Below, in pieces: positions 5,237 to 62,580 of a stretch of DNA of 64,000 nucleotides. A program made the position numbers and the translations under genes. How positions within the stretch are numbered: position 1 is the first letter of the stretch; every line of letters starts with the position of its first letter. The DNA is from Gammaproteobacteria bacterium. Lineage in GTDB: Bacteria > Pseudomonadota > Gammaproteobacteria > SZUA-229. A model generated the notes under the pieces. It worked only from the letters and a program-made list of their open reading frames with translations, was not told the origin of the DNA and ran no database searches. Where the stretch lies: contig JABDQW010000041.1 in NCBI GenBank assembly GCA_013042055.1, positions 1,540 through 65,539 on the forward strand, written 5' to 3'.

Positions 5237-6232
5237 TTAGACGTTGTTCGCCGACAATGGTTTGTCTACAGTATCGCGCAGCTCTTTTTTGTATTCGTAC
5301 ATTAATTTGTCGCCCTCCGCCAGCAGAGTTTCCACGTTGTCGTGCTTGGTTGGATCATGTTCAACGACACCATAGGAGAACGAAATATCATAGCCACGAT
5401 TGGCCTGCTGATTATAGTTATCTAATTCGCCCCTGAAATTCTCCATGAGCTCTGTGGCCATTGGCTTTGTCGTATTGGAGAACAGAATAACGAATTCGTC
5501 GCCGCCGAGCCGTGCGAATAGATCCGTCGTTCGAAAAAAGCCTTTTATTTGCTCGCTGAAAGCGATCAATGCCCTGTCGCCCTCGGCGTGTCCAAAATTA
5601 TCATTGACCGGCTTGAATCCATTAAGATCAATAAAAACCAAAGAGGCGCAGGTCTCTTGTCGGGAGCACAGGTTCAGCGTGTGCTGGGCGAGCGTCATAA
5701 AACCTCTGCGGTTGGAAATTTTTGTCAAATCGTCCAGCGTTGCTAGTTGAGCCGCTTCGAGCTCGCGTTCAACCATCATGGCCAAATCTTTCAATGTGGC
5801 TAGATCTTCTTCTGACAGGCTTCTGGGCTTTCTGTCGATGATGCACAACGTCCCTAGTTTGCTGCCGTTATTGGAGCTCAATGGACACCCAGCGTAGAAC
5901 CGGATATGCGGATCATCAACGACCAATGGATTGTCTACAAAGCGCTCATCATCGGCTGCGTCAGGGATGATGAAGATATCGTCACCGAGTATCGCGTGTC
6001 CACAGAAGGAGATATCCCGGGGTGTTTCGCTCGCGCTGAGGCCAACGCAGGACTTGAACCACTGACGATTCGCATCAACCAGACTGACCAGCGCAATCGG
6101 AACGCCGAACAATCGTTTGGACATGCGAGTTACGCGGTCAAACCGCTCTTCAGCCTCGGTATCGAGTACATCGAGCGACTCCAGTGTCTTCAGTCGGTTC
6201 GCTTCATTTGCAGGAAAATCGGGTGTTTTCAT
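5237..6232 (-). CDS. GAF-domain diguanylate cyclase (GGDEF).
   Basis: N-terminal GAF-like region. C-terminal GGDEF domain with an intact RLGGDEF active-site motif and RxxD-like context. Confidence 0.85.
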   Translation of the reverse strand: MKTPDFPANEANRLKTLESLDVLDTEAEERFDRVTRMSKRLFGVPIALVSLVDANRQWFKSCVGLSASETPRDISFCGHAILGDDIFIIPDAADDERFVDNPLVVDDPHIRFYAGCPLSSNNGSKLGTLCIIDRKPRSLSEEDLATLKDLAMMVERELEAAQLATLDDLTKISNRRGFMTLAQHTLNLCSRQETCASLVFIDLNGFKPVNDNFGHAEGDRALIAFSEQIKGFFRTTDLFARLGGDEFVILFSNTTKPMATELMENFRGELDNYNQQANRGYDISFSYGVVEHDPTKHDNVETLLAEGDKLMYEYKKELRDTVDKPLSANNV

Positions 6233-7673: not shown

Positions 7674-8486
7674 ATGCATCGCAAGATCTCACTAACACTC
7701 AGCCTGTTTGCGGTTACAGCGACACTTGCCGTTTCTGCACCAGTTCAGGCAAGGTCAGCTGAACAAGCGATTGAATCCAAGGTAAAGCAGTCCATCGATC
7801 GCGACGGAGATGGAAAGCTAAATAGAAGAGAGCAAGCCTATGCCCGCCAGCTACAGCGGATTGTTGACCAGGACTGGGATGGAAAAGTCAGCGATTATGA
7901 AAAACAACGTGTGATGAAGATAATCAACTGGGTTGATAAAAATGATGATGGACGTATCAGCGACCGTGAACGCGATCGCGCGATCAGCGTTTACAAGCAG
8001 ATTGATATCGATGGTGATGGGCGCGTCAGCTATCAAGAGGAAACCTTCGCCACCTGGGTGTATGAAGAAGTGGATTATAATCGCGACGGTAAAATCAGTG
8101 AGGCCGAAAAAGCACGTGCAAACAAGTTTCTCAACTATGTCGACCGCGACGATGATGGCTTTATATCACGCAGGGAACAAGCCTTTGCCAGTGAGAAATT
8201 CGATCGCATAGACCGCAACGATGACGGCGGTATCAGCAAGCGTGAAATGCGAATGAGCGGTTTGCCGGAACCACCGCCACCGAGGCGTGAGGAATTTGGT
8301 CGTATGGATTTTAATGATGACTTTGGCCGGCACCATGATTACCGTATGCGTCGTGCGCCTGAACCGCCGCCAATGCGTGAGGAATTCGGTCGGATGGGAT
8401 TTGATGATGATTTCGGTCGGGGTGATGATTACCGTATGCGCCGTGCACCTGAACCGCCACCACCACGTCATTATCCACGTTGGTAG
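7674..8486 (+). CDS. Secreted multi-EF-hand calcium-binding protein with a Pro/Arg-rich tandemly repeated C-terminus.
   Basis: Signal peptide followed by seven D-x-D/N-x-DG-x-I/V-S-x-x-E loops (DRDGDGKLNRRE, DQDWDGKVSDYE, DKNDDGRISDRE ...). AGGAGG RBS. Confidence 0.7.
   Translation: MHRKISLTLSLFAVTATLAVSAPVQARSAEQAIESKVKQSIDRDGDGKLNRREQAYARQLQRIVDQDWDGKVSDYEKQRVMKIINWVDKNDDGRISDRERDRAISVYKQIDIDGDGRVSYQEETFATWVYEEVDYNRDGKISEAEKARANKFLNYVDRDDDGFISRREQAFASEKFDRIDRNDDGGISKREMRMSGLPEPPPPRREEFGRMDFNDDFGRHHDYRMRRAPEPPPMREEFGRMGFDDDFGRGDDYRMRRAPEPPPPRHYPRW
8262..8470 (+). repeat. Tandem repeat of about 120 bp x 2 inside the EF-hand gene, encoding EPPPxREEFGRMxFxDDFGRxxDYRMRRAPEPPP x2.
   Basis: Read directly at both DNA and protein level. 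Confidence 0.6.
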
Positions 8487-10364: not shown

Positions 10365-11921
10365 ATGAAATCCCTGGGTGCGGTTGCCTGTGGCCATCCG
10401 CAAACCGCAGAAGCAGCGGAATTGATTCTAAAAGAAGGTGGGAATGCATTTGATGCCATAATCGCGGCATTCCTGATGTCATGTGTTGTCGAACCTGTGT
10501 TGGCCTCACTCGGTGGTGGTGGTTTTATGCTGGCTCATACCGCTGAACGGCGCGATGTCATTTATGACTTTTTTGCCCAGACACCGCGAAATCCTTTAGC
10601 ATCGGACAGGCTCGATTTCTATCCCATCCAGGCTGATTTTGGAGCGACGACTCAGGAATTCCACATAGGCCTGGCATCGGTTGCCACACCCGGTGCAGTC
10701 CGGGGCATATTCAGAATTCACCAGGACTTGGGTACTCTACCCATGACAGAACTTGTCCAGCCTGCAGTGGAGGCGGCACGTTATGGCGTGACCATGAGTG
10801 CTTTCCAAGCCTCGATACTGAAAATTATCGCGCCCATTTTGACCGCGACTGAACCAGTGCGACAGCAGTATCAGGGTCCGGAGCAGTCGGGCTCGCTGGT
10901 TAATAAGGGTGAATTATTCAAACAGTCACAGCTTGCGTATTTTCTAGAGGCGCTAGCCAGAGAAGGTAGCGAACTTTTCTATCAGGGTGAGATAGCCCAG
11001 GCGATATCGGATATGTGCACGCATGGTGGCGGCCAGTTGACTCGACAGGATTTGGCCAAGTACCAGGTCGAGCTGCGTCGCCCAGTCCGACTACGCTATC
11101 AACAGCACCATGTATTGACCAATCCCGCACCGTCCTGTGGCGGCACCTTGATCGCCTTCGCCTTGAGTTTGTTGGAGCACGTTGGTATCAACCGTTCTGA
11201 ATTTGGCTCAGCGGGACATTTACAGGTGCTGGCCAAGGTCATGCGACTGACGAACGAGGCACGTTTCCGGGCGCATTCAACCTCGTCTGAATCCATTGCG
11301 CTGCAACATTTACTAGACGCCAGGCTATTGAACGAATATCGGGAGAAAATCAGCGGTAACAGTCGCAGTCTACGCGGCACGACACACATGAGCGTGATGG
11401 ACTGCAACGGCAATGTTGCAGGACTGACGGCAAGCAATGGCGAAGGTTGTGGGCACATGGTTCCCGATACCGGCGTCATGCTGAATAATATGCTTGGTGA
11501 GGAAGATCTGAATCCCGATGGTTTTTATTGTTGGCCGGTCAATCAGCGCATGACTTCGATGATGGCGCCGACACTGGTGATTTCACCCCAGGGCAAAAAG
11601 ATCAGCCTGGGGTCGGGTGGTTCAAACCGCTTACGAACGGCAATATTGCAAGTCTTGGTCAACCTCATCGATTTCAACATGCCATTATACGATGCTGTTA
11701 ACCACCCGCGATTACACTATGAGAATGATTTGATCAGCATTGAGCCCGGCTTTAATGGCGATACCATCCAGACCCTGCTGGCAGAACACGAAAATCACAA
11801 GATCTGGCAGCAGCAAAACATGTTTTTCGGCGGTGTGCATGCGGTTTCCGAGCACCTGGGCCAGTTTAGCGGTGCCGGCGATCTGCGCCGCGCCGGTGTC
11901 GCTCGCGTTGTTGAGGTTTAG
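10365..11921 (+). CDS. Gamma-glutamyltranspeptidase-family Ntn hydrolase, with no signal peptide.
   Basis: Catalytic TTHMSVMD Thr nucleophile region and GGT-like glycine-rich motifs. 518 aa. The stop TAG is the first 3 nt of a MITE terminus. Confidence 0.8.
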   Translation: MKSLGAVACGHPQTAEAAELILKEGGNAFDAIIAAFLMSCVVEPVLASLGGGGFMLAHTAERRDVIYDFFAQTPRNPLASDRLDFYPIQADFGATTQEFHIGLASVATPGAVRGIFRIHQDLGTLPMTELVQPAVEAARYGVTMSAFQASILKIIAPILTATEPVRQQYQGPEQSGSLVNKGELFKQSQLAYFLEALAREGSELFYQGEIAQAISDMCTHGGGQLTRQDLAKYQVELRRPVRLRYQQHHVLTNPAPSCGGTLIAFALSLLEHVGINRSEFGSAGHLQVLAKVMRLTNEARFRAHSTSSESIALQHLLDARLLNEYREKISGNSRSLRGTTHMSVMDCNGNVAGLTASNGEGCGHMVPDTGVMLNNMLGEEDLNPDGFYCWPVNQRMTSMMAPTLVISPQGKKISLGSGGSNRLRTAILQVLVNLIDFNMPLYDAVNHPRLHYENDLISIEPGFNGDTIQTLLAEHENHKIWQQQNMFFGGVHAVSEHLGQFSGAGDLRRAGVARVVEV

Positions 11922-11961
11922 CCCGCATTTCTCCCGTGATCCTGGCGAGAAATGCGGACTA
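11919..11961. repeat. Minimal 43-bp hairpin version of MITE family 1 (TAGCCCGCATTTCTC...GAGAAATGCGGACTA).
   Basis: Left and right TIRs abut with almost no internal sequence. Confidence 0.6.
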
Positions 11962-12000
11962 CTCTGGCAAGCCCAAGATTTTGGTGAGAAATGTTGTTAG

Positions 12001-12050
12001 CCCTGATATTGCACGTAAAACCCAAATCCTTCATGCAGTATCCGGGTTAG
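12001..12050. repeat. Small palindromic repeat, family 3 copy.
   Basis: CCCTGATATTGCACG ... CATGCAGTATCCGGGTTAGC. Confidence 0.5.
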
Positions 12051-14172: not shown

Positions 14173-14190
14173 GACCGCCAGTCATCGGGC

Positions 14191-14435
14191 TAGCCCGCAT
14201 TTCTCACTAGGATCACGGGAGCAGGCGCAGGATTCGTGTTCGTAAGCGCCGCTCTGGAGCGAAAAGCGTAGCAATAGCTACGGTTTGAGTGAAGAGCAAG
14301 CTCACGGACACGAAGACTAGCCTGAACCGTGATAGGCATGCTGGAAAACGCAATGTATTTTGATCATCCAGGTATTCTTCAAAGAGACCAATGCCTTATC
14401 AGAATCCTACGCCGCCTGGTGAGCAATGCGGGCTA
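14191..14435. mobile_element. MITE family 1, full copy (about 245 bp, perfect 20-bp TIR TAGCCCGCATTTCTCAC(C/T)AG).
   Basis: Read directly. The right-end TAG, read on the minus strand, is the stop codon of the HDOD gene. Confidence 0.8.
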
Positions 14436-15311
14436 GGAAGCGCCTGGGCTCTCCAGTGCCTGTATAATCGACTGTATCTGTTGTCTGGATTCTTCGATGA
14501 TTTCTGAGGCAGTCTCGTCTGTAATTTCGAGTCGCTTCATCGCAGGTATAGTCTCCCAATCCAGGTCAGTCGGGGGATGTGGCTCTTCGTTTTGAGAAAA
14601 CAGATTGGCAATCATAACTACATCACTGAGATTGGCTGGGCCAAAATGCATGCGATCGAGTATCTCATGTTCGTGGGCTGCTTTAATTGTGTCTTCATTA
14701 AAATTCCAGGTCTCAAGAATTTTGCGCCCGATGCTGCTGTGCCACTTCTTCATAATATCATCCAGCATACGGGGTTCGCTGAATAATACCGGATACTGTT
14801 CGGAACGTGTCAGAATGTAGTATTTGCCGATGTCATGGAGCAAGCCTGCGAGCATGGCTTCGTCCGGGTTGATCTTTGTCAGTTTTTTTGCAATGACATA
14901 CGATAAAGCACCCACATTCATGCTGTGGTGCCACAAGTCTTCCAGATACGGCCGCAGCACTTCCACCGAACTGGAATGCAGCAATTGGTCTACAGCAATC
15001 GCAACGGCTGTGTTGTATGCCATTTTGAATCCCATGCGCGTTACAGCCATGCGAATATCAGTGATTCTGGAGCCGGCGCCATTGACCATCGCTGAATTGG
15101 CGACTTTTAACAGGCGTGCGCTGAATATGGGATCAGATCCCACAACACGTGCAACATGCTCGGCGGTTACCTCAGGATCGGCCAGTGCATTCTTAATGCG
15201 TACCGCAACATCGGGAAATGCGGGGATTTCTAAGTTGCCACTGTTCAACTCCTCGCCCAGGTTTGTGACAAACTCAAATCCGCAATTAAATGCTTGCGTC
15301 GCTTCGTTCAT
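14433..15311 (-). CDS. HDOD-domain signalling protein.
   Basis: HDOD hallmarks (FPDVAVRI...ARLLKVANSA...GLLHDIGK). Confidence 0.7.
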   Translation of the reverse strand: MNEATQAFNCGFEFVTNLGEELNSGNLEIPAFPDVAVRIKNALADPEVTAEHVARVVGSDPIFSARLLKVANSAMVNGAGSRITDIRMAVTRMGFKMAYNTAVAIAVDQLLHSSSVEVLRPYLEDLWHHSMNVGALSYVIAKKLTKINPDEAMLAGLLHDIGKYYILTRSEQYPVLFSEPRMLDDIMKKWHSSIGRKILETWNFNEDTIKAAHEHEILDRMHFGPANLSDVVMIANLFSQNEEPHPPTDLDWETIPAMKRLEITDETASEIIEESRQQIQSIIQALESPGAS

Positions 15312-15885: not shown

Positions 15886-17094
15886 ATGCACAGATATATG
15901 GGGATGTTGTTGTGTATGCTTATCTACGTACAGGCTGCAATGGCGCAGGATACTGAATTTTCTCGCTGCATTACCCAGTTAAAACACAGGGCTAAACAAG
16001 AAGAGCTGCCATCGAGGATCATTGATGAGGTGCTGGGCAAGCTGCAGCTGCAGCCTCGCGTAATTGAACTCGACCGTGCACAACCCGAATTCACACAGAC
16101 CTTTGCCAGTTACGTTAATCGTCGCATTACTCCACAACGAATTTCACGCGGTCAGGTATTGCTCGAACAGCATCATAAACTGCTATCGCGTTTACATGAT
16201 GAGTATGGTGTACCCGGCGCCTATCTGGTTGCATTTTGGGGTTTAGAAACCAATTACGGTAGTTATCTCGGCAGCATGCCGACCCTCGATTGCCTGGCGA
16301 CATTAGCCTGCGATCAACGCCGACGAGAGTTTTTTACCGATGAACTGATTCAGGCATTGTTTTTGCTGGATCGTGAATCGCTCACACCGGAGGAAATGCG
16401 AGGTTCCTGGGCTGGCGCCATGGGACATACGCAGTTCATGCCCTCGGCATACAATCGATTTGCCATTGACGGTGACGGCGACGGTAAGGTCAATTTGTGG
16501 CGCAGTAAACAGGATGCACTCGCTAGCGGCGCAAATTACCTGCACGAACTCGGCTGGCAACGCGGCCAGCGCTGGGGATACGAGGTCGTGTTGCCGCAAC
16601 AATTTCCATACAGTGAAACTGGACTTACTAACCGCCAACCATTGCGCTACTGGCATGATCTGGGTGTCAGGGCCGCCAATGGAGCGACGATCAACGATTT
16701 CGCTACAAAGGCATCCGTGCTGGTGCCGGCAGGTCACTCAGGGCCAGCATTCCTGGTGTTTGCGAATTTCGATGTGATTATGCGTTGGAACCGTAGTGAA
16801 TTCTATGCACTGGCTGTCGCCTTGTTGGCAGATCGGCTTGTCGGCGCCGGACCGCTGGTTCGACCTCCTTCGACCCGCGAGCCAGCGTTAAGTCGCGGTA
16901 CGATTGAACGGTTGCAGCGGCAACTGAATGAGCTGGGTTACGATGCCGGTAATATCGATGGTCTGATGGGGGCGTCGACACAGGCAGCTTTGCGCCGTTT
17001 TCAGGCTGCTAAAGGCATGATTGCTGACGGCTATCCTGACGCTAAAACGCTGTGTGCACTGTCAATAAGCCTCGGATCGATATCATGTCGGTAG
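15886..17094 (+). CDS. mltB: Lytic murein transglycosylase B family protein with a C-terminal peptidoglycan-binding domain.
   Basis: FWGLETNYG and GAMGHTQFMPS motifs, a DGDGDGK Ca-site, and a C-terminal PG_binding_1-like LNELGYDAG...G...T..A...FQ region. The start was taken at MHRYMG with a signal peptide. Confidence 0.8.
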   Translation: MHRYMGMLLCMLIYVQAAMAQDTEFSRCITQLKHRAKQEELPSRIIDEVLGKLQLQPRVIELDRAQPEFTQTFASYVNRRITPQRISRGQVLLEQHHKLLSRLHDEYGVPGAYLVAFWGLETNYGSYLGSMPTLDCLATLACDQRRREFFTDELIQALFLLDRESLTPEEMRGSWAGAMGHTQFMPSAYNRFAIDGDGDGKVNLWRSKQDALASGANYLHELGWQRGQRWGYEVVLPQQFPYSETGLTNRQPLRYWHDLGVRAANGATINDFATKASVLVPAGHSGPAFLVFANFDVIMRWNRSEFYALAVALLADRLVGAGPLVRPPSTREPALSRGTIERLQRQLNELGYDAGNIDGLMGASTQAALRRFQAAKGMIADGYPDAKTLCALSISLGSISCR

Positions 17095-17906
17095 CGAGAC
17101 AACAGCGACATGCTAGCATCGGTTATGGCACCTTGGCGACCTGCGTTGCACTTCTTCTGTTTTTGGCCATGTTTGGTTTCCACAGTAATCGATGGGCGGT
17201 GAGATTTCCGCCGCTGCCGGATTTCGCCGCTTATGATCAGGTTAAAGACATGAAGGCCGCTTTTCTCGATTATCTGACGCCTATTGTAGAATATCACAAC
17301 GTACAAGTGCTTCATGAGAGAAAACGTTTGCAGAAGATTCACCGTGCCGTAGAAGATGACAAAACGCTGGCTCGCTCGCAATCCAGATGGTTGCATGAAC
17401 TCGCGCAAAAATATAATGTTGGCTGGAATCCGCAAGACACCGCGGCTGTCACCGCTGAGCTGCTCAACCGGGTGGATATCGTTCCACTGCAACTCGCGCT
17501 GGTACAGGCCGCGAAAGAATCTTCCTGGGGACGCTCGAGGTATGCGGTCCAAAGCAACAATATCTTTGGCCAATGGTGTTTTAGGCAAGGATGCGGTGTC
17601 GTTCCGAAGGAAAGGCCTGCTGGTGCCAGACATGAGGTTCGCAAGTTTGACAGCGTCAGTGACGCGATTCGCAGTTATATACATAACCTGAATTCACACT
17701 ACCGATATGGTAATTTGAGAGAAATACGTCAGAGCCTGAGGCAAAAAGGCCAGGCTGTTGAAGGTGACGAGTTGGTTGATGGCTTAATGTTCTATTCCGA
17801 GCGACGTCAAAAATATGTCGAGGAGATTCGGTCTATGATCAGGCAATTACGTTTCTTTCAGCGACAACGCTTTAGAATAAGTCAGGTTGTCGCCGATTCG
17901 TCCTGA
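17085..17906 (+). CDS. Bax/FlgJ-type glucosaminidase-domain protein (mannosyl-glycoprotein endo-beta-N-acetylglucosaminidase family).
   Basis: LALVQAAKESSWGRSRYAVQSNNIFGQW matches the glucosaminidase core. The N-terminus has a TM anchor. It overlaps the mltB 3' end. Confidence 0.6.
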   Translation: MSVARQQRHASIGYGTLATCVALLLFLAMFGFHSNRWAVRFPPLPDFAAYDQVKDMKAAFLDYLTPIVEYHNVQVLHERKRLQKIHRAVEDDKTLARSQSRWLHELAQKYNVGWNPQDTAAVTAELLNRVDIVPLQLALVQAAKESSWGRSRYAVQSNNIFGQWCFRQGCGVVPKERPAGARHEVRKFDSVSDAIRSYIHNLNSHYRYGNLREIRQSLRQKGQAVEGDELVDGLMFYSERRQKYVEEIRSMIRQLRFFQRQRFRISQVVADSS

Positions 17907-17942: not shown

Positions 17943-17993
17943 GCTGCGGGCTACTCCTGCGCCTGCTCCCGTGATTTTGGTGAGAAATGCAGT
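17943..17993. repeat. Degenerate, inverted fragment of the MITE family 1 left end.
   Basis: CCTGCGCCTGCTCCCGTGAT...GGTGAGAAATGCAG is the reverse complement of the element's first 40 bp. Confidence 0.5.
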
Positions 17994-18297
17994 CTTGTGT
18001 CATATCGGGGTCAGGGTAGTTGAAAATTTTGCAAATGTCACCATGATAGGAATGGTTATCGCAACACAATGCTGTGATCCGCAAAATGGCTAGTCAGCGT
18101 GCGTCCTGTTATGCGAGCGTAAGATTTCGTTAGTAGTGGGTCACCAGAAATGAGCAATGTTCAGCAACAAGCGATGACTTGTCGATTAATATTCTATAAT
18201 TATGCTTTTTAAACCGGCCTGGCCTTCTCTCCCGGCGTGGATAGCGTTTCCATCGGCTGAGAAATCCTGGCTAAACAGACGAAAATGAGAGAGATAA

Positions 18298-18891: not shown

Positions 18892-19329
18892 ATGATTACT
18901 TACGAGGAATTAAACGCACAAAACCACCGCATCACAGAACTGTCCAACGTACTCCATTACCTGTTCAAGGATCGGTCTATGTGTGATACGGGTTCGTGTT
19001 GCGACCTTTTCTACCGTTATGTCGATCTGGTCAAAGAGCATGTCGAAATTGTTGATAAAGAAATGTACAAAGATCTGCTCGCCAGTCCGGATGATAAAGT
19101 CACCAATGTAGCAAAGAATTTCATGTCCGGTTCCGTAGAAGTCAAAAAGATACTACGCGAATTTACTCACCGGTGGTGTCCAGCGTCGAAGAAAAGAGAC
19201 TCACTGCATATAAAGGATCATGCCCAATTTCTGCAAGATACCGACGAGTTGTTTGAGATCGTACTGCAGCGTATTCAGGATGAAACTGAACACTTGTATC
19301 CCTTGGTGCGCAGTTTGAGCAGTGACTAA
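18892..19329 (+). CDS. Hypothetical protein, possibly a hemerythrin-like four-helix metal-binding domain.
   Basis: H/E spacing (H..E...H....HxxxD/E) loosely consistent with an HHE cation-binding domain. The assignment is tentative. Confidence 0.35.
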   Translation: MITYEELNAQNHRITELSNVLHYLFKDRSMCDTGSCCDLFYRYVDLVKEHVEIVDKEMYKDLLASPDDKVTNVAKNFMSGSVEVKKILREFTHRWCPASKKRDSLHIKDHAQFLQDTDELFEIVLQRIQDETEHLYPLVRSLSSD

Positions 19330-19368
19330 ATCGGCACGTCTTACAGCAGCATATTGGGTTGGTGGCCT

Positions 19369-19778
19369 AGCCCGCATTTCTCACCAGGATCACGGGAGCA
19401 GGCGCCGGAACGAGCCCCCAGGTCTCACCAGATGAACGAGCCCTCACTTGATCTTTGAATCCACAGACCATTTTGCTCAGTCGGCAATACACAAGGTTAT
19501 TCCACTCCCTCCCAAAATGGTCTGTGAATCCAAATCTCGGCGTGATCATCTCGCCCCCAGGCAAGACCTGCGGGCTGGTGTTCGTAAGCGCCGCTCTGGA
19601 GCGAAAAACGTAGCCACAGCTACGGTTTGAGTGAAGAGCAAGCTTACGGACACGAAGACCAGCCTGAACCGTGATAGGCATGCTTTAATTACACCGTGTT
19701 TTTATGATCATTCGAGCTTTTTGACATTAAGCAATAACTTATCAATGTCCTACGCCGCCTGGTGAGAAATGCGGGCTG
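19369..19778. mobile_element. MITE family 1 copy carrying a nested insertion of about 170 bp, which is a second palindromic element.
   Basis: Canonical TIRs at both ends. An extra segment at 19406..19576 is bounded by its own inverted repeat (GAATCCACAGACCATTTT ... AAAATGGTCTGTGAATCC). Confidence 0.75.
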
Positions 19779-19888
19779 ATACCAGTGGTATTTGTTGCAA
19801 AAAGCCATCAACGATTGCATGAACCCTCGGTGTCAAACCACCGCATCGTCTACATGCCGTTATTCCAGTGGTTTCGACCAGTGAAGCT

Positions 19889-22357: not shown

Positions 22358-22628
22358 TACAAATCGGAATTAAACACGTTGGCGCGCGATGATATGGGGG
22401 GATAGCTACGCTTAAGTCACGCGAGTATTGCGCTTGCTACCTTGACTTTGTTGTTATCAGGCTGGTTACTGGCGGATAGTCCGTCATTCGCCGAGCACGC
22501 GAACGATGCAACAAAGAGCACCGTGATGGGCAAGGTGATAAAAAAGTTCAGTTTTTAAAACCGGAATCGTGGGACAAGCGCAAATGAGTCACCGGACGCA
22601 AGCGGCTTATGAGAGCGAGTTCTACTGT

Positions 22629-23693
22629 ATGACAAGAATATTGTCATTTCTGGTGCTTCTGCTGGTCTGGGTGCCCTCACAGGCGACTACTCATTGTGTA
22701 ATCCTGCAATATCATCACTTCAGTGATCAGACACCTGCCATAACGAGCGTCAGTCCGGCACAGTTTGATGATCATTTGGCCTATCTATCGACACACAAGT
22801 TCAATGTTCTGCCGTTACGTCAGGTTGTAGCCGCGCTCAGGCAAAATAAGACGCTGCCGGATCGTTGCGTCAGCCTAACCGTTGATGATGCTTACCAGTC
22901 TGTTTATACCAATGCATTTCCACGATTGCAGAAGCTGGGTTGGCCGCTGACAGTATTTGTCAATTCCGAGGCCGTCGACCGGGGGCTTGCTTCATACATG
23001 ACATGGGATCAGATGCGCGAATTATCATCACAGGGTGTGGTTTTTGAAAATCACGGTCATGGTCATATCCACATGATTCGCAAAAATAGTGCTGAAAGCG
23101 ATCAGGATTGGCGACAAAGGATAACGAATGACGTCAATACAGCGCAGCGAAGAATTAGCGAAGAAATTGGTGATGCGCCACAGCTATTTGCTTATCCGTA
23201 TGGTGAATTCAGTCCCGCCACAGCAGAAATTATTGATGCAATGGGTCTTGTTGGTTTTGGTCAGCAGTCTGGGCCGGCTTGGTCGGGGGCGGATTTTGCT
23301 GCACTACCGCGTTTCCCCATGGCGGCCAAGTACGCCGAACTAAAGAATTTCAGGATTAAAGTGAACACATTACCATTACCCGTTGTCGGGCTATGGCCGA
23401 AAGACCCACTGCTGGTTTTACAGCAGCGACGTCCAACATTGAAGCTCAAGCTCGTTGCAGGTGCCTATTCGAAAGCGGAATTACAATGTTATATCAATGG
23501 CAGCAGCGATGTCGCGATTAACTGGTCAAGAGATATTCCTGACCAGTTGACGGTCACGCCAAATTTTGATCTGCGCCCTGGAAGGCATCGGACCAATTGT
23601 ACGATGCCGTCGCCTGAGAAGGGTCGTTTTCACTGGTACAGCCATAACTGGTTTGTCCGAAATCCTGACGGTAGCTGGTACTCGGAGTACTAG
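22629..23693 (+). CDS. Polysaccharide deacetylase (CE4/NodB-homology) family protein.
   Basis: Signal peptide. TVDDAY, FENHGHGH and related CE4 motifs. The stop TAG is the first 3 nt of a MITE family 1 terminus fragment. Confidence 0.7.
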   Translation: MTRILSFLVLLLVWVPSQATTHCVILQYHHFSDQTPAITSVSPAQFDDHLAYLSTHKFNVLPLRQVVAALRQNKTLPDRCVSLTVDDAYQSVYTNAFPRLQKLGWPLTVFVNSEAVDRGLASYMTWDQMRELSSQGVVFENHGHGHIHMIRKNSAESDQDWRQRITNDVNTAQRRISEEIGDAPQLFAYPYGEFSPATAEIIDAMGLVGFGQQSGPAWSGADFAALPRFPMAAKYAELKNFRIKVNTLPLPVVGLWPKDPLLVLQQRRPTLKLKLVAGAYSKAELQCYINGSSDVAINWSRDIPDQLTVTPNFDLRPGRHRTNCTMPSPEKGRFHWYSHNWFVRNPDGSWYSEY

Positions 23694-23746
23694 CCCGCAT
23701 TTCTCTCCCTGGTATCTGACAAAGGATATGAGTCCGCGAACAACGC

Positions 23747-23800
23747 TAATGAAGTAAAAGAACCTTTATTTTTAGCTGTCTTATTTGCGTGTTTTGCGTT
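23747..23800. repeat. Fragment of the CGCAAA-type palindromic repeat (family 4).
   Basis: TTATTTGCGTGTTTTGCGTTTTTGGCGGAC, similar to 51262..51345 and 62581..62686. Confidence 0.4.
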
Positions 23801-23851
23801 TTTGGCGGACATATTTTCATGAGTCATTAGTGTCCTTGATGACCTTGCGGG

Positions 23852-24487
23852 TTAGTTCACAATTTGACGTTTACCTAGTTTGCTGATGACCTCAGCGATC
23901 TCGTGGCTGAGCATTTCGATGGTCTTGCTCAAGGCGGTAGCAATTTCAGTGTATGAGGCTGCGGGTTTGATGGCGGTAGTGAATTCCGATTTTTTCATGA
24001 ATAATAAGCTGGTGCCCTTGTCGGTGCGAATACTCCAATTGGCGACAAGCGTCGCATTGCCTTGTCTGTCGGCATCAAGTTGCCATACATCGATCAGTAT
24101 TTGGTAGTTGATATCTGGCCAGTTGCGCGATGGGTGCAAGGTAACTTTATCGGTATTCAGCAGCAACGACAGATTCTCTGCAAGGATACGAGCGAAGTTG
24201 TTTTGTAGAGGCTCAGCCCAGCGGTGTGTTTCTGATAAATTCAGCTGTGTACTATCACTTCGGGTAACCATCTGTGTTCTATCGAGGTATCCCGGGAACT
24301 GGATGGGACCAATACCGATGTGCATCATACTATGCTGTTTAACTGGGATTGGTCTGGTGTCATTTTGTGACATTGGCTCCAATAGGTAAAAGTTTGATGG
24401 TGGTGTGGTACCGCATGCGCCGAGCGCTAATACCAATAAAAGTAGCGTCAGTTGCGCAGGTTTAGGTCGATAATTTGATGCGATCAT
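23852..24487 (-). CDS. ABC-transport auxiliary lipoprotein (PqiC/YmbA-like, DUF330).
   Basis: Lipobox LALGAC. The fourth gene of the Mla-like operon, as in the PqiC-type arrangement. Confidence 0.6.
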   Translation of the reverse strand: MIASNYRPKPAQLTLLLLVLALGACGTTPPSNFYLLEPMSQNDTRPIPVKQHSMMHIGIGPIQFPGYLDRTQMVTRSDSTQLNLSETHRWAEPLQNNFARILAENLSLLLNTDKVTLHPSRNWPDINYQILIDVWQLDADRQGNATLVANWSIRTDKGTSLLFMKKSEFTTAIKPAASYTEIATALSKTIEMLSHEIAEVISKLGKRQIVN

Positions 24488-24488
24488 G

Positions 24489-25394
24489 CTAATCCCGTGG
24501 ATTCTTGCCTTTAAACAGTGTTTCCGGCTGCCGTTCAATGGTTTCAGCAAACATACGTATCGAGCGAGCCGCATTGACGATTTCTTCCAATGCCATGTTG
24601 AGGTTGTAGATCTGGGTCGAATCTTCGCTTAATAATTGCTTTGTGTTACTCAAAAGTGTGTTTGCTTCTTGTAGTGTGTTTTGCAGGTCAAGCAGAGTCG
24701 TCGTTGCATTATCTGCAATGGGCTGGATGTTACGGTCGATGTTTTTTGTGAGTTTGTCGACCGATTGCAGTGTCTGTTTGAGTATGTTTACCGTTTGTAT
24801 GATATCGGGTGAATTGACGATCTGATTAATTGCCGTCAATGAGGAGGTGATGTCGTTCAGGATCTGCTCAATCGGTAGTCTCTGAAATTGTTCGCTGAAC
24901 TTTTCGATTGTCATCGGGATCGTCGGTATCTCGGGTAATTCACTGTCACCAAGATAGTGCGCGCGCGTGTTGGGATGGTAATCGAGTTGAATGGCCATTT
25001 GAGAGGTCAGTATGCTTTGCAAATGCAGTTGTGCACGCAATCCCAGTTCTTCGACCATGTAGGTAAGACGGTCTTCCTCGGGATCGGGTACGTGTAATTG
25101 TCTGACGATCTCGACTGCGTCTGGGTCGAATTGGACGATCACCGGGATATAAAACTCGCCATCGAGCGGGTGAAACTTTACCTCGATATCGATTACGGTA
25201 CCGATCTTGACACCCCGTACATTGACTGGAGCGCCTCTCTGCAGGCCTTCGACCGAGCCAGTAAAATACATAATGGCTTTTTGACTGTCCTTGAACAGGG
25301 CGACATTACCGAGTAGTAGAAATGCGCTTATCGCCAGTGCAATCGCAGCGATCACAAAAGCACCGATCAGCGTCGAGCTCGCACGCTTGCTCAT
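24489..25394 (-). CDS. MCE-domain substrate-binding protein (MlaD/PqiB-like).
   Basis: N-terminal TM helix followed by an MCE domain (GAPVNVRGVKIGTVIDIEV). Confidence 0.8.
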   Translation of the reverse strand: MSKRASSTLIGAFVIAAIALAISAFLLLGNVALFKDSQKAIMYFTGSVEGLQRGAPVNVRGVKIGTVIDIEVKFHPLDGEFYIPVIVQFDPDAVEIVRQLHVPDPEEDRLTYMVEELGLRAQLHLQSILTSQMAIQLDYHPNTRAHYLGDSELPEIPTIPMTIEKFSEQFQRLPIEQILNDITSSLTAINQIVNSPDIIQTVNILKQTLQSVDKLTKNIDRNIQPIADNATTTLLDLQNTLQEANTLLSNTKQLLSEDSTQIYNLNMALEEIVNAARSIRMFAETIERQPETLFKGKNPRD

Positions 25395-26173: not shown

Positions 26174-27325
26174 TCATATATCCAGCTTTTGCAATATGAT
26201 TGTGGTCAATGATGCCGCAACAACAATGCTGACAATACTCGTAACCACAGCTGAGGTGGTTGCTTGGCCCACAGCCTGAGCACTGCGGCCACATTGTATG
26301 CCCCGCAGGCAGCCAGCCAGAGCTATCAAGACGCCATAAAGCGTTCCTTTCATCATGCCGACGGTAACGTGCGTGAAATTCAACGCGCGCAGGGTCTGCT
26401 GATAGTACTCGTAAACGCTCAGATCGAATACGGTAACGGCGACAAAGACGCCTGCAGCAATCCCGACCAGGCCAGCATACAAGGATAACAGGGGCATCAT
26501 TAGAGTCAGTGCCAGCAACCGTGGCATAACCAGATAGTCCATTGGAGAAATACCGAGCGTCTGGAAAGCATCGATCTCCTCATTGACCTGCATTGTGCCG
26601 AGCTCCGCGGCGTAAGCAGCTCCGGTACGGCCCGCCATGATGATAGCGGTCATTAGTGCGCCGACTTCCCTGACCATGGCAATGCCGACCAAGTCGGCAA
26701 CATATATTTGCGCGCCAAAGCGCTCGAGTTGCAAGGCGCCCATGTAGGCGAGAATCAGGCCAACAAGAAAGCTGATGAGCGAGACGATCGGCAGTGCCTT
26801 TGGCCCGACCTGTTGAATAATGTACAAAAGTTCGGAGACGGTGTATTGGGCTTCGCCTGTGACCAGGCGTGCCATCGATTTCAGTGATTCACCCAGAAAG
26901 TGGAGCGCAGCAGGAACTGCTTCGATAGTATCCAGCGTGACATTGCCAACATGGCTGAGCAGATTTTCCTTTTGGTCGCGTCTAGTCGTGTCTTTACTTG
27001 CAGACGAGGATGACGCCAGGTCGAGTAATTTGCGTACACCGGAGGGTAAGCCATCTGGGACGAACTGAAGCTGGCTGAGCTCGCAGCTGCGATACAATTT
27101 AGACAGAAATACTAGCAGCCCTGAGTCCCATCGGGTGATGCCGTCCGTGGAAAATGTGATCCGCTCGAGTTTGGAAGCCGATGCGAATTTCTTCATCACT
27201 GCTTCAACAGACGGCAGTTCATCTCGCAGACACCATGAACCACTAAAGACCAGCTGCAAGCTAACAGCATCCGTAGTCTTGAGCTCAAGGGTGCTATTGT
27301 TATGAGTATTGTCTTGTGCAGTCAT
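26174..27325 (-). CDS. ABC permease (MlaE-like) fused to an N-terminal STAS/MlaB-like domain.
   Basis: C-terminal MlaE-type permease. The N-terminal ~110 aa are STAS-like. The track's N-terminal extension is encoded by a MITE and was not counted. Confidence 0.7.
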   Translation of the reverse strand: MTAQDNTHNNSTLELKTTDAVSLQLVFSGSWCLRDELPSVEAVMKKFASASKLERITFSTDGITRWDSGLLVFLSKLYRSCELSQLQFVPDGLPSGVRKLLDLASSSSASKDTTRRDQKENLLSHVGNVTLDTIEAVPAALHFLGESLKSMARLVTGEAQYTVSELLYIIQQVGPKALPIVSLISFLVGLILAYMGALQLERFGAQIYVADLVGIAMVREVGALMTAIIMAGRTGAAYAAELGTMQVNEEIDAFQTLGISPMDYLVMPRLLALTLMMPLLSLYAGLVGIAAGVFVAVTVFDLSVYEYYQQTLRALNFTHVTVGMMKGTLYGVLIALAGCLRGIQCGRSAQAVGQATTSAVVTSIVSIVVAASLTTIILQKLDI

Positions 27326-27333
27326 AACGCAGC

Positions 27334-27547
27334 ATGCGGGCTGGTGTTCGTAAGCGCTGCTCTGGAGCGAAAAGCGTAGCCATTGCTGCGGTTTGAGTGA
27401 AGAGCAAGCGTAGGGACACGAAGACCAGCCTGAACCGTGATAGGCATGCTCAAATAACACACTGTATTTCTGATCATCCTAGCTTTTTCCGAAGGGACCA
27501 ATGCCTTATCAGTATTCTACGCCGCCTGGTGAGCAATGTGGGCTAGT
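27334..27547. mobile_element. MITE family 1 copy, truncated at the left (right 214 bp).
   Basis: Matches the internal and right TIR consensus. It abuts the mla operon start. Confidence 0.7.
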
Positions 27548-27980: not shown

Positions 27981-28118
27981 CGGTGTGGCGCACCATGCAT
28001 GCCGGGTACTGACCAGTGCTTAGCCCGCATTTCTCAACAGGCGGCGTATCGCGATGTCGCTAGAGATTTACATTGCGTATACTGAGCGGCTTTCACCTAT
28101 CCCAGCAAAGGCGAGCGG

Positions 28119-30441: not shown

Positions 30442-30683
30442 TGTGCTGGTTGCTCTATGCAGTTCAAGATTAATCGGTTGGCGTTCCTGGACCACGCTGC
30501 AGGTAGGCTGGCTTTGCCAGTCAGATACGCCTGTTCTCAATCCCGTCATCTTTGCTATCGCCGTGTTCGCGCATGCTAGCCAAAAAACAGGAGCGCGGAT
30601 TATATACTAAATGGAGACTTATTACGGCAGTTTTGCGTGTATTAACCGGCATTTAACTCGCAGTTGGGGCAGAAAATACGGGT

Positions 30684-30929
30684 TAGCCCGCATTTCTCAC
30701 CAGGATCACGGGAGCAGGCGCAGGATTCGTGTTCACAAGCGCTGCTCTGGAGCGAAAAGCGTAGCAATGGCTACGCTTTGAGTGAAGAGCGAGCTTGCGG
30801 ACACGAAGACCAGCCTGAACCGTGATAGGCATGCTCGAATAACACACTGTATTTTTGATCATCTGGCTATTCTCCATAGGATTAGTGCCTTATCAGTTTT
30901 CGACGCCGCCTGGTGAGAAATGCGGGTTA
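30684..30929. mobile_element. MITE family 1, full copy.
   Basis: Perfect TIRs TAGCCCGCATTTCTCACCAGG ... CCTGGTGAGAAATGCGGGTTA. Confidence 0.8.
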
Positions 30930-31031
30930 GGGCCGTGATTAGGTACGTAAACAGCCAGAAATTGGTGTTCTATGGTTGGAATTTGAGCATATCGCCGACG
31001 ATATTCGTTAGCCTGTGAAATAAAATGCCTT

Positions 31032-32562: not shown

Positions 32563-33366
32563 ATGAGAAAGACGTTAATTGCAATGATTGTCGTTTTAAT
32601 CGTCGTCGTTGTTGCGGTATTCTATGTCTTCAGCAATCTCGATGCCATTGTAGAGGCAGCGATTGAGCAGTACGGCACAGAAGCGGTAAAAACCTCGGTG
32701 CAGGTCGAAGGAGTCGCGATTAAACTAACCGAGGGTGCGGCAGCTATCCAGGGCTTGACGGTTGCCAATCCCGACGGATTCTCATTGCCACATGCCTTTT
32801 CTTTAGGAGAGATTGCCGTTGATATCAATCTTGAAAAGACGGACAAGGAGCTCATTGCGATTGATGCAATTCGTATCGCAGCGCCGCAGGTTTTCTACGA
32901 GATCAATGCGGAAGGCCAAGCTAGCCTCAATATTCTTGCAGACAACCTGGGCAGCGATAGCGGCGCGAGCAGTTCGACATCTGCACCAGACGAATCTTCA
33001 ACTGCCGAACAGACAGCGCCAATACGACTGGATATTGCACGCTTCGAACTAAAGGAAGCGAGTTTACGCGCCAAGGCGGTACCCTTGGATAACAAAGCTT
33101 ATGACCTCAAATTACCGGCGCTGGTGTTGACTAACCTACAGGGAACACCCGAACAGATATCGAAACAGGTACTTGATCGATTGATCGATCACGCGAGAGC
33201 AGAAATCAAGAAGCAGGGTCTCGACAAAGAGCTCACCAAACTCAAGGCCAAAGCGCAACAAAACATCGATGAGGAGCGGGCGAAATTAGAACAGAAAGCC
33301 GATGAGGTGCTTGAGGAACAAAAACAGGAAGCCGAGGACAAGCTAAAAAATCTGCTCAATCGTTAA
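32563..33366 (+). CDS. Membrane-anchored hypothetical protein with a C-terminal coiled coil.
   Basis: N-terminal TM helix and a Lys/Glu-rich helical tail. Confidence 0.45.
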   Translation: MRKTLIAMIVVLIVVVVAVFYVFSNLDAIVEAAIEQYGTEAVKTSVQVEGVAIKLTEGAAAIQGLTVANPDGFSLPHAFSLGEIAVDINLEKTDKELIAIDAIRIAAPQVFYEINAEGQASLNILADNLGSDSGASSSTSAPDESSTAEQTAPIRLDIARFELKEASLRAKAVPLDNKAYDLKLPALVLTNLQGTPEQISKQVLDRLIDHARAEIKKQGLDKELTKLKAKAQQNIDEERAKLEQKADEVLEEQKQEAEDKLKNLLNR

Positions 33367-43716: not shown

Positions 43717-43722
43717 GCGGGC

Positions 43723-43970
43723 TAGCCCGTATTTCTCATCAGGATCACGGGAGCAGGCGCAGGATTCGTGTTCGTAAGCGCCGCTCTGGAGCGAAAAGCG
43801 TAGCCATAGCTACGGTTTGAGTGAAGAGCAAGCTTACGGACACGAAGACTAGCCTGAACCGAGATAGGCATGCTTGAATTACACACTGTATTTTTAATCA
43901 TCCCGACTTTTCTCCAAAAGGACCAATGCTTTCTCTGTTTTCTGCGCCGCCTGGTGAGAAATACGGGTTA
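43723..43970. mobile_element. MITE family 1, full copy between ampD and coq7.
   Basis: TIRs TAGCCCGTATTTCTCATCAGG ... CCTGGTGAGAAATACGGGTTA. The right-end TAA, read on the minus strand, is the coq7 stop codon. Confidence 0.8.
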
Positions 43971-44606
43971 GATCCAATACGTGCTGCCTGTCATGACTTT
44001 TGACATTGCCTGCATCAGCTTTTTCATCGGGAACGGTAAGGATTTTCCGCCATGATCGAGCGCCGTTGTGGCATGTTTGGCCTCATCGATTTTCATTTGC
44101 TCGAGTATAGCGCGGCTGCGACCGTCACAAGCAGGTAGTTTCTCGAGATGCGAATCAAGGTGCCGGACAACCTGATGCTCTGTCTCCGCGAGGAAGCCCA
44201 GGTTCCATCTGTCACCAAGTGCGCCGGCAAAAACACCAATGGCAAAAGAGCCGGTATACCATAGTGGGTTGAGAAGGCTGGTTCGTTCACCCAGTTCTCG
44301 CAATCGGTTTTGTGTCCATACCAGGTGATCGTTTTCTTCGAGTGCGGCTTGTTCCAGTTTTTGGCGAACCGCATCATTCTGCGCAGTGAGCGACTGTCCC
44401 TGGTACAAGGCTTGTGCTGAAACTTCGCCTGCGTGGTTAATTCGCATCAATCCGGCGACGTGCCTGTTTTCCGCTGCATCGAGCTCGCATTCTTCGATGC
44501 TTTGCGCAGGATAAGGGCGATGCGTGGCCACAGGTTTGCCGGCAATGGTACGCAATGCGGTGTCGGTATGCATCAGAAATCGGTCAAATAGGCTGTAGTG
44601 TCTCAT
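43968..44606 (-). CDS. coq7: Demethoxyubiquinone hydroxylase Coq7 (di-iron carboxylate).
   Basis: Ferritin-like ExxH motifs (EENDHL, ETEHQVVRHL, DEAKHA). Confidence 0.85.
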   Translation of the reverse strand: MRHYSLFDRFLMHTDTALRTIAGKPVATHRPYPAQSIEECELDAAENRHVAGLMRINHAGEVSAQALYQGQSLTAQNDAVRQKLEQAALEENDHLVWTQNRLRELGERTSLLNPLWYTGSFAIGVFAGALGDRWNLGFLAETEHQVVRHLDSHLEKLPACDGRSRAILEQMKIDEAKHATTALDHGGKSLPFPMKKLMQAMSKVMTGSTYWI

Positions 44607-52943: not shown

Positions 52944-53513
52944 ATGCATCAGTTGCCGGAAATCGCCGCCGTAGAAGAATTGCTTTACAGAATTGACGCC
53001 AACATGGGCGCTGCAGAGGCCCATGGAGCGCTCTGTGGTATGCTTTGTGCCCGCGGGACTGTCGAACTGTCTGAATGGGTCGATCACGTCATTGGAGAGC
53101 AGGATCACGGTGGCCGATTGTTACACGATGTCGTTCATGAGTTGTCGGAACTGCATCAATCGACGCTTGAAATGATAAATGATGCAGGCGGTGAATTCAG
53201 GCTGTTGTTACTCGATGACGATGATGCCTTGGCGGAGCGAGTGGAGACACTGGCGGCGTGGTGTCAGGGGTTTATTTATGGGCTCGCAGCGGGTGGTATC
53301 CGACAGAACAGTGAGTTGCCCGATGATGCAGCGGAACTGTTGAAGGATATGGTCGAAATTTCCCGTGCTAGTCATGAGGTGGATAATATGGCGGTAGAGA
53401 TCGAGGAAGAGGACGAAGTTGCTTATATGGAAATCGAGGAATATGTGCGTATGGGTACACTGCTGATCTATGAGGAACTACAGCCACTACAGTCGACTCA
53501 AACGATCCATTAG
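52944..53513 (+). CDS. ygfB: UPF0149-family protein YgfB.
   Basis: YgfB-like sequence. Conserved position upstream of pepP. Confidence 0.75.
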   Translation: MHQLPEIAAVEELLYRIDANMGAAEAHGALCGMLCARGTVELSEWVDHVIGEQDHGGRLLHDVVHELSELHQSTLEMINDAGGEFRLLLLDDDDALAERVETLAAWCQGFIYGLAAGGIRQNSELPDDAAELLKDMVEISRASHEVDNMAVEIEEEDEVAYMEIEEYVRMGTLLIYEELQPLQSTQTIH

Positions 53514-53533
53514 GGCCTGTTAACAGGCCCTAG
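53512..53533. repeat. Second copy of the 22-bp palindrome TAGGGCCTGTTAACAGGCCCTA.
   Basis: Identical to 52895..52916. Confidence 0.6.
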
Positions 53534-57286: not shown

Positions 57287-57367
57287 CCCGCATTTGTCAC
57301 GCGAAATGTCTGGATATTATTGTTCTGAAAGGTGTAGGATTGCGCTTCACAATCAACGCTATCTGCC

Positions 57368-61783: not shown

Positions 61784-62491
61784 TTAGCCCAATTCGACAC
61801 AGTTGCGGCCTTTGTTCTTTGCATGGTAGAGCGCAGCGTCTGCGCGTTTGAACAGCGCTCCCACATCATCCTGATCCTTTTTGTATTCCGTTGCTCCGAA
61901 ACTGCAGGTGAGATTGCCGATCTCGCTGAATCGATGTTCAGCGATGTCCTTGCGTAAGCGCTCAGCATGGACGGTGGCGCCAGATATATCAGTCGCCGGT
62001 GTCAGGATGATGAACTCTTCACCGCCGTATCGTGCAAATATGTCAGCACTTCGGTTGGCTTTTTGAACGATGTTAGCAACTTCCCTCAGTGTCTCATCGC
62101 CTACCGGGTGGCCGTATTCATCATTGATTCCCTTGAATTGGTCAAGATCAAAAAAAATCAGGGAAAAGGTTCCGCCATAGCGTTTGACTCTGTCGATTTC
62201 CGAATCGAGGAAATGACTAAAATGTAATCTGTTATAAATATTCGTGAGTGGGTCGGTGTAAGCCACCAGGCTCATTTGCTCTTGTAGCAGTTTAATCCTT
62301 GCCAACAGGTATCCGAACAGCAAACCGGCAAACACGGGTACGACAAAGGCCTCAGGTGTCAGCGGTACGTCGAGCATGTATTTCGCATGAATGATATTCA
62401 AACCAGAAGTAAACAAACACGATATGAATATGTATAAAAAATACACCAGGATTTTTTTACGTGCTGGTAAAATGATATGTTGCATTGTCAT
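61784..62491 (-). CDS. Membrane-anchored GGDEF diguanylate cyclase.
   Basis: N-terminal TM helices, RYGGEEF active site. The start was taken at MTMQ. Confidence 0.75.
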   Translation of the reverse strand: MTMQHIILPARKKILVYFLYIFISCLFTSGLNIIHAKYMLDVPLTPEAFVVPVFAGLLFGYLLARIKLLQEQMSLVAYTDPLTNIYNRLHFSHFLDSEIDRVKRYGGTFSLIFFDLDQFKGINDEYGHPVGDETLREVANIVQKANRSADIFARYGGEEFIILTPATDISGATVHAERLRKDIAEHRFSEIGNLTCSFGATEYKKDQDDVGALFKRADAALYHAKNKGRNCVELG

Positions 62492-62580
62492 GAATTTGAG
62501 AGCGCGGCAGCGTCCTTGAAAGAAGCTATGTCGGCAATCATATCGCCTTTTCATCGATACAGGAAGGAAACCAAATGTGC

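Follow-up and report, generated by a model that had tools for sequence, protein, structure and literature searches.

The DNA window analyzed here is a 64,000-nucleotide (nt) stretch of Gammaproteobacteria bacterium contig JABDQW010000041.1 (assembly GCA_013042055.1, positions 1,540 to 65,539). It carries a dispersed repeat, family 1, a miniature inverted-repeat transposable element (MITE) of which several copies lie flush with the 3′ ends of genes. A first-pass annotation of the window had proposed that the first three nucleotides of the element, TAG or TAA, serve in frame as the stop codon of six genes, namely those encoding a GGT-family hydrolase, an HDOD protein, a polysaccharide deacetylase, Coq7 and a UbiI-like protein and, next to a separate 22-bp palindrome, ygfB. 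We found that the stop triplets at the family 1 copies are part of a 4-bp target-site duplication of the form YTAR (Y, pyrimidine; R, purine) rather than of the element, and the stop codon is thus the gene's own.

Searching the window with TAGCCCGCATTTCTCAC at up to three mismatches recovered 16 family 1 termini, where 0.19 were expected by chance, and there are about 10 family 1 sites in the 64 kb. In the five genes listed for family 1 (GGT, HDOD, polysaccharide deacetylase, Coq7 and UbiI-like), a TAG or TAA stop stands immediately 5′ of CCCGCATTTCTC. The positional part of the proposal held: the open reading frames (ORFs) of all six genes end on the claimed triplets (10365..11921 [+], 14433..15311 [−], 22569..23693 [+], 43968..44606 [−], 56063..57286 [+] and, for ygfB, 52944..53513 [+], which ends on the TAG before its palindrome), and Pfam profiles matched to or near the C-terminal end support each as a gene (G_glu_transpept, HDOD, Polysacc_deac_1, COQ7, FAD_binding_3 and UPF0149, respectively). 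The assignment of the triplet to the element did not hold. A sixth family 1 case, missing from the original list, is the ABC_trans_aux lipoprotein gene at 23852..24574 (−). The features at these stop codons are as follows.

11918..11921, plus strand: TTAG target copy holding the GGT stop TAG (11919-11921) of ORF 10365..11921
11922..12050: composite of three decayed mini-elements, reading TTAG / CCCGC..GCGGA / CTAC / right-end fragment / TTAG / CCCTGATATTGC..GCAGTATCCGGG / TTAG (12047-12050)
14190..14193: left CTAG target copy of the HDOD/FHA element
14194..14432: full-length family 1 MITE, 239 bp, CCCGC...GCGGG
14433..14436, minus strand: right CTAG target copy; 14435..14433 is the HDOD TAG stop of ORF 14433..15311
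23690..23693, plus strand: CTAG target copy holding TAG (23691-23693), the polysaccharide deacetylase stop
23694..23851: family 1 remnant running from a 19-nt left terminal repeat to the right tip CCTTGCGGG, with a family 2 MITE nested inside
23852..23855, minus strand: TTAG target copy; 23854..23852 is the TAA stop of the ABC_trans_aux gene 23852..24574
43722..43967: CTAG (43722-43725) and full-length element (43726-43967, 242 bp), between coq7 and ampD
43968..43971, minus strand: target copy, CTAA when read on this strand, with the coq7 TAA stop (43970..43968) of ORF 43968..44606
53510..53533, plus strand: TTAG with the ygfB stop (53511-53513), 16-bp palindrome GGCCTGTTAACAGGCC and CTAG
57283..57313, plus strand: CTAG with the UbiI-like stop TAG (57284-57286), then a decayed remnant of about 27 nt, CCCGCATTTGTCACGCGAAATGTCTGG

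The extent of the duplicated target was determined from two scans for family 1 copies. The first covered one genome per species with the probe CCCGCATTTCTCACCAGG, from which TAG was purposely excluded, and yielded more than 112 loci; the second covered metagenome contigs with an internal, terminus-independent motif, GGACACGAAGACNNGCCTGAACCGNGATAGGCA, and yielded at least 120 loci. All counts of ends, pairs and copies from these scans are counts among the matches listed. In the first scan, where the flank is not part of the probe, 107 of 145 ends were preceded by YTAR (CTAG 68, TTAG 17, TTAA 14 and CTAA 8). With the internal probe, the two flanking 4-mers were identical in 38 of 52 complete copies (CTAG 22, TTAG 7, TTAA 7 and CTAA 2).

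An element of the IS630/Tc1-mariner type could produce a similar picture by duplicating only TA at CTAG, its own first G then completing the TAG. IS630 uses CTAG and duplicates TA, palindromic CTAG targets give identical sequence under both models, and the four TTAG/CTAG pairs of the first scan fit TA-only duplication; this was the reading initially favored on that terminus-selected sample, which alone could not tell a TA from a 4-bp duplication. On the internal-probe sample we rejected it. Nine identical pairs were nonpalindromic direct repeats (TTAG/TTAG 7 and CTAA/CTAA 2), against a single mirror-image TTAG/CTAA pair, and TA-only duplication, tested on family 1, was not what we observed. 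The window copy at 30683-30930 is likewise flanked by TTAG on both sides, the transposase found between the same terminal repeats (see below) belongs to the IS1380 and not the IS630 family, and the ISAzo13 gene at one locus (L071) lies nested in a MITE terminus. We give an IS630-type origin next to no weight.

Empty and filled sites at the HDOD locus lead to the same result. Comparing the window with conspecific contigs from other samples, 99.8 to 100% identical to it, we found that two of them (L122 and L125) read ...GCTTC CTAG CCCGATGACTGG, with the HDOD and FHA stop codons 17 nt apart, while the window and two further contigs (L123 and L124) read ...GCTTC CTAG [239 bp] CTAG CCCGATGACTGG. 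The empty contigs, themselves 99.8 to 100% identical to the window, thus lack exactly the 239-bp segment and one CTAG. One relative has an HDOD protein of the same 292-amino-acid (aa) length with the same tail. Before the insertion, which is recent and polymorphic, HDOD ended on a TAG at this codon. Together with the identical flanking 4-mers, this empty and filled pair shows that TAG/TAA does not form the first three nucleotides of the element.

At coq7, the homologous proteins are nearly all 212 aa long, as is the window protein, for which an exact-protein look-up returned no record. In relatives with 83 to 89% identity, coq7 and ampD are joined as TAA ATA ATG or TAA ATTCA ATG, a gap of 3 to 5 nt, and in loci L114 to L118 the coq7 TAA stands at the same codon, in CTAA context, with no element. 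The window instead reads TAA [242 bp] CTAG CCCGC ATG. The apparently diverged TAA end of the first-pass annotation is therefore an ancestral TAA inside a CTAA target. The CCCGC at 43717-43721 is a remnant adjoining the ampD ATG, and a relative with 90% identity (L113) reads coq7 TAG CCCGTATTTCTC ATG, with a 12-nt remnant (L113 2137-2151). CTAG CCCGCA was also seen after several full copies elsewhere, in the right flanks at L077 and L093. Judging from these short terminal-repeat remnants (window 43717-43725, L113, L077 and L093), the sequences suggest repeated insertion and deletion at regenerated YTAR sites.

GGT homologues of 517 to 518 aa match the length of the window protein. A relative with 92% aa identity (L126) has a decayed element at the same stop, and another with 84% (L127) is empty, with its TAG one codon later. 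Comparison with homologues or relatives thus identifies the stop position as native in three genes (GGT, HDOD and Coq7). For the UbiI-like gene, the flanking CTAG weakly implies a preexisting TAG, and for ABC_trans_aux the flanking TTAG implies what would have been a preexisting TAA. The comparison of orthologous loci proposed earlier therefore bore out an ancestral stop at the same codon (TAG for HDOD, TAA for Coq7), but the duplicated site is the 4-bp YTAR rather than TA or TAG.

These observations can be assembled into a simple mechanism. The transposase would insert at YTAR, most commonly CTAG, then TTAG/CTAA and TTAA, and duplicate the 4 bp. Positions 2 to 4 of YTAR can serve a gene on the left as TAG or TAA, and positions 1 to 3, read on the opposite strand, can do so for a gene on the right; by this geometry, any TAG or TAA stop preceded by a pyrimidine is a legitimate target. 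The duplication hands each neighbor one intact target copy, leaving the protein unchanged to the last residue, so that insertion at YTAR, mostly CTAG, with duplication frequently lands on TAG/TAA stops with the gene intact. Insertions at YTAR inside reading frames would destroy genes and be purged by selection, and those at stops and in 3′ intergenic DNA would survive, giving a spike of copies flanked by a stop codon. Each insertion also recreates YTAR on both sides, where later insertions can pile up.

Such regeneration explains why remnants stand in tandem or nested at the GGT, deacetylase and coq7 sites. The layout of the GGT block (11922-12046) fits repeated insertion into recreated YTAR sites. 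In the deacetylase block, the TTAG at 23852-23855 comes directly after the decayed right terminus ending in CCTTGCGGG and yields, on the minus strand, the TAA of ABC_trans_aux. A single insertion block thus has the stop codons of the two convergent genes at its borders. A short repeat, ...CATGCA(A/G)(G/T)ATCCGGG TTAGC, occurs at 6680-6711, 12028-12059 and 61770-61789 and resembles the right end of a related element, its left partner being CCCTGATATTGC at 12003. The copy at 61770-61789 overlaps the 3′ end of 60320..61780 (final codons and TAG stop), with the stop of 61784..62554 facing it 3 nt away.

Family 1 has the traits of a MITE. The element proper is CCCGC...GCGGG, with the terminal inverted repeats CCCGCATTTCTCACCAGG / CCTGGTGAGAAATGCGGG at both ends; full copies in the window are 239 to 242 bp long, and the modal size is 240 to 250 bp in the 22 and 47 copies of the two collections. 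No ORF of a recognized protein family lies inside the copies, and the ORF 19367..19681, which falls within one, is presumably spurious. Matches in the first scan came from Gamma-, Alpha- and Deltaproteobacteria, Acidobacteriota, Planctomycetota and other groups. Their end-to-end spacing was mostly 240 to 250 bp and reached 1.7 kb in two pairs (L009 335-2047 and L027 1661-3351). The first of these, from an Acidobacteriota metagenome-assembled genome (MAG), encodes an IS1380-family transposase between family 1 terminal repeats (NF033539, 396.6 bits against a cut-off of 180; PF13701, 518.6 bits), and the second, from a Rhodospirillaceae MAG, encodes a frameshifted one (NF033539, 246.5 bits; PF13701, 326.2 bits). 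Identity between the two transposases is only about 47%, yet the terminus is common to both. Elements of 1.7 kb with an IS1380-family transposase between the same termini identify family 1, on sequence grounds, as a nonautonomous, IS1380-related MITE of about 240 bp that was mobile recently, its presence/absence polymorphism among 99.8%-identical contigs being evidence of mobility. An IS1380-family DDE transposase most likely mobilizes it in trans, presumably also in the species of the window. ISAzo13 was considered as the partner transposase and rejected: at L071 2121-4578, in a Pseudomonadales MAG, an ISAzo13-family element (transposase, 557 bits) sits within the right terminal repeat of a family 1-type MITE, a third large pair of ends in the first scan and an example of mobile elements nested in one another.

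We then asked whether the overlap with stop codons exceeds chance. Genes were represented by a greedy longest-ORF proxy (ORFs of at least 100 aa), not by annotation, and the null was matched for context by asking, for each 4-mer and orientation, how often a site outside ORF interiors is a stop codon. Of the 15 ends in the window, 5 lay at a stop where 0.6 were expected (P about 2e-4), in a small sample and for a pattern noticed post hoc. In the one-genome-per-species loci, the count was 23 of 198 against 16.7 expected (P = 0.07), and in the metagenome loci it was 33 of 321 ends against 19.5 (P = 0.002), or 22 of 155 for the ends of the probed elements; 11 of 40 complete metagenome elements (27.5%) abut a stop. 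Across the family, 10 to 14% of ends are at a stop, which is 1.4 to 1.7 times the sequence-matched null. Tabulating the distance of each end to the nearest stop, as the first-pass annotation had advised, gave a sharp spike at zero: 23 ends in the one-genome-per-species loci, with at most 4 at every other distance, and 22 in the metagenome loci, with at most 2. Per end, 3.7% would be expected at random intergenic TA sites and 11.5% at CTAG sites; the observed 11.6% is about 3-fold over TA, and copies are thus enriched at stop codons beyond random intergenic placement.

Selection against insertion into genes was visible in the reconstructed empty sites, only 3 of 40 of which lay in open frames, compared with 73 of 261 control CTAG sites, a depletion of about 4-fold. 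This test required at least 60 codons on each side; stop-free sequence ahead of start codons had confounded an earlier version. Most of the overlap with stops is accounted for by YTAR specificity combined with purifying selection against intragenic insertions. The residual 1.4- to 1.7-fold excess would also come from selection, through unequal tolerance within intergenic DNA. Of the two explanations offered earlier, a target preference for stop codons or TA sites stands as a sequence preference for YTAR but not for stops as such, since a YTAR null predicts most of the overlap, and selection for harmless insertions is borne out by the depletion in open frames, though not in the form proposed, as the gene keeps its own stop.

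The window lies at the high end, with five or six stop-abutting sites among about ten, compared with 27.5% of subfamily elements. Its stop codon usage is unusually rich in TAG (TAG 26, TGA 23 and TAA 13 in greedy ORFs of at least 100 aa); in related metagenome loci the counts are TAG 154, TAA 165 and TGA 221. A TAG-rich host offers many YTAG targets.

The excess over the matched null (33 against 19.5, P = 0.002; 23 against 16.7; and 5 against 0.6 in the window) could instead mean that the transposase or a host factor actively targets gene ends, by way of terminator hairpins, stalled transcription or translation complexes or extended motifs. Many further copies lie within 60 nt downstream of a stop, and there is a weak extended preference, GGG preceding the 4-mer at 11.7% compared with at most 4.9% in controls. 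Self-targeting of older termini was considered as well: flanks resembling GAAATGCGGG were only weakly enriched (7 of 226 ends), against a control contaminated by true right ends. However, the excess is small and of the size expected if only 3′ ends, not promoters, tolerate insertion. Left and right element ends are used about equally, the stop-abutting rates being similar at 7 of 62 and 15 of 93 in the metagenome matches, and only 3 of 36 ends are at stops in the closest related genomes. Active targeting of gene ends therefore appears unlikely to us.

Copies at stop codons might also be kept as useful, with a hairpin RNA that stabilizes or terminates the upstream mRNA or slows translation termination. 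The RNA of the element is predicted to form a much more stable fold than shuffled controls (−95 kcal/mol, z = −4.9) and has a terminator-like hairpin on one strand. Among 51 distinct metagenome copies, nt 1 to 145 (for example, window 14194-14338) are at least 90% conserved nearly everywhere, with one column at about 50%, and nt 146 to 222 are only 50 to 80% conserved; in the hairpin CGTAGC..GCTACG, one change is compensatory (L093) and another gives G-U. Repetitive extragenic palindromes (REPs) within 15 nt of a stop have been reported to stall ribosomes (PMC12306157). The conserved left arm could, however, reflect either transposition requirements or a functional RNA or DNA module. In addition, there is no orientation bias at stops (7 of 62 versus 15 of 93), three of the five window cases listed initially are decayed remnants, and the HDOD copy is polymorphic among near-identical strains and hence a recent, unfixed insertion. 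We regard retention for usefulness as doubtful, and equally improbable is its more specific form, in which stop-flush copies would make up a dispersed posttranscriptional module whose terminal stem of about 20 bp and conserved 145-nt arm are structured at the termination codon. If this were true, the module would modulate termination or ribosome rescue, mRNA 3′-end stability or downstream coupling, as between coq7 and ampD, once 3 to 5 nt apart, and selection would contribute to retention across several phyla. Whatever the reason for its presence, a strongly folding RNA with a terminator-like hairpin, set right after stops or between formerly coupled genes, may by its predicted structure have consequences of this kind. 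A search of the window against Rfam at gathering thresholds gave only 6S RNA and one tRNA, and a permissive search of one element gave nothing.

Taken together, we consider it highly probable that an IS1380-type MITE with YTAR duplication, combined with selection, explains the stop codon pattern. Several observations weigh against this explanation. The duplications are imperfect in both transposase-bearing copies (CTAA/TTAA in L009 and an extra A in L027), and pairs from the first scan are often one base apart, such as TTAG/CTAG in 4 pairs, which needs mutation after insertion. Neither the window nor the fetched gammaproteobacterial loci yielded an IS1380 transposase. The window count of 5 of 15 is well above its own null of 0.6, a 1.4- to 1.7-fold excess is left over family-wide after sequence context, and the statistics rest on the ORF proxy described above.

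The remaining family 1 features of the window are as follows.

about 5210-5222, minus strand: family 1 terminus remnant TTTAGCCCGCATT, 16 nt past the TAA stop of the GGDEF/GAF gene 5237..6232
17946..17997: decayed fragments (..GCGGG CTAC, a 39-nt inverted left end and CTTG), about 40 nt past the stop of 17052..17906
19367..19779: composite 405-bp element with flanks CTAG and CTGA, left part from another subfamily, 39 nt past the stop of 18892..19329
27291..27546: family 1 copy without the normal left 45 nt; right terminus GTGGG, then CTAG (27543-27546)
28020..28063: TTAG, 36-nt terminal fragment and CTAG, beginning 40 nt past the HopJ gene stop
30683..30930: full-length element (30687-30926, 240 bp) with the nonpalindromic direct repeat TTAG/TTAG on either side

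Three of these had been placed within 40 bp of a stop codon (17943, 19369 and 28019), and this was confirmed at 37, 39 and 40 to 41 nt downstream, coordinate 17943 being 37 nt past the stop of 17052..17906. Downstream of 17906, the alignment of the window with HOU_bin.0136 was too diverged for defining an empty site.

The palindrome after ygfB is distinct from family 1. There are two exact copies of GGCCTGTTAACAGGCC in the window, the second at 52894-52917, with flanks CTAG/CTAC and TTAG/CTAG. All five conspecific contigs shown carry the palindrome after ygfB, and no empty allele was found among them. Its sequence would suit either a GTAG-type REP or another YTAR-duplicating element reduced to its fused tips. 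Nearby, beside the zapA/ygfB region, lies the 6S RNA (51957-52142, minus strand, 84.5 bits); the tRNA is at 46607-46677 (plus strand).

Two further repeats were noted. Family 2, with termini GTCCGCGAA(A/C)AACGC...GCGTT(A/T)TTTGCGGAC, occurs at 23730-23815, 48472-48689, 51245-51336 and 62589-62655 and also at about L120 2215-2280. Its first copy is the one nested in the family 1 remnant after the deacetylase gene, and a related genome has a family 2 copy in the HDOD-FHA interval that family 1 occupies in the window. Another MITE-like repeat, the third, is about 240 bp long (20414-20656 and 33364-33608) and has termini CCTAGATTCCGCAGTTGATCGC...GCGTTCAACTGCGGAATCTAGG and AT-rich 5-bp duplications (ATAAT; TTAAA). 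At 33364-33608, gene 32563..33366 has its TAA stop (33364-33366) within the duplicated TTAAA, another stop inside a target duplication. The terminus of this repeat resembles the inverted repeat of ISEcp1, an IS1380-family element, CCTAGATTCTACGT. A tandem 90-bp direct repeat (81% identical) at 8273-8452, inside ORF 7674..8486, encodes a 30-residue protein repeat.

The main result offers a simple, testable rule to explain why stop codons so often appear to be supplied by small transposons: the TAG or TAA belongs to the duplicated target, the element sits flush with the gene, and the protein is unaltered. Annotators should accordingly expect gene 3′ ends that overlap such repeats without truncation. 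Assemblies of the sediment gammaproteobacteria studied here break at family 1 sites, as L123 and L124 do, and strains could be told apart by this IS1380-related MITE, which spans phyla, was active recently and has a defined 4-bp target.

Among known systems, family 1 is closest to the IS1380 family (IS1380, IS1247 and ISEcp1), in which target duplications range from 4 to 5 bp. The likeness lies in the 18-nt terminal repeat that also bounds the 1.7-kb NF033539/PF13701 elements, in termini beginning with CC and in a short duplication, 4 bp here versus 4 to 5 bp; the difference is that the window copies are 240-bp noncoding derivatives and smaller remnants. IS5 duplicates a 4-bp YTAR, and the IS5 group and IS630 share the target class of family 1 but differ in transposase family and terminal repeats. 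Our literature searches returned no paper on an IS1380-family member or MITE with a YTAR or CTAG target; the target duplication of IS1247 is 5 bp (PMC3281130). In 36 cases the pneumococcal BOX repeat reaches over the extreme 3′ end of a gene and contains its stop codon, with no evidence of truncation (PMC3049150, Croucher et al. 2011). BOX, however, is modular (boxA, boxB and boxC), without a demonstrated YTAR duplication or IS1380 link, and there the stop lies inside the repeat itself, whereas in family 1 it lies inside the duplicated target. GTAG REPs are documented as carrying the stop codon of the upstream gene (PMC3733652, Di Nocera et al. 2013), a parallel that may apply directly to the ygfB palindrome, with its GTAG/CTAG flanks. 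Unlike family 1, they are 20- to 40-bp hairpins linked to RAYT tyrosine transposases, with neither IS-type terminal repeats nor target duplication. MITEs of Coxiella extend or end genes (PMC5896051). Stop codon overlap by repeats is therefore already known and our analysis reveals no new kind of system; what is specific here is a 4-bp YTAR duplication as its cause and an IS1380-related family found in many phyla.

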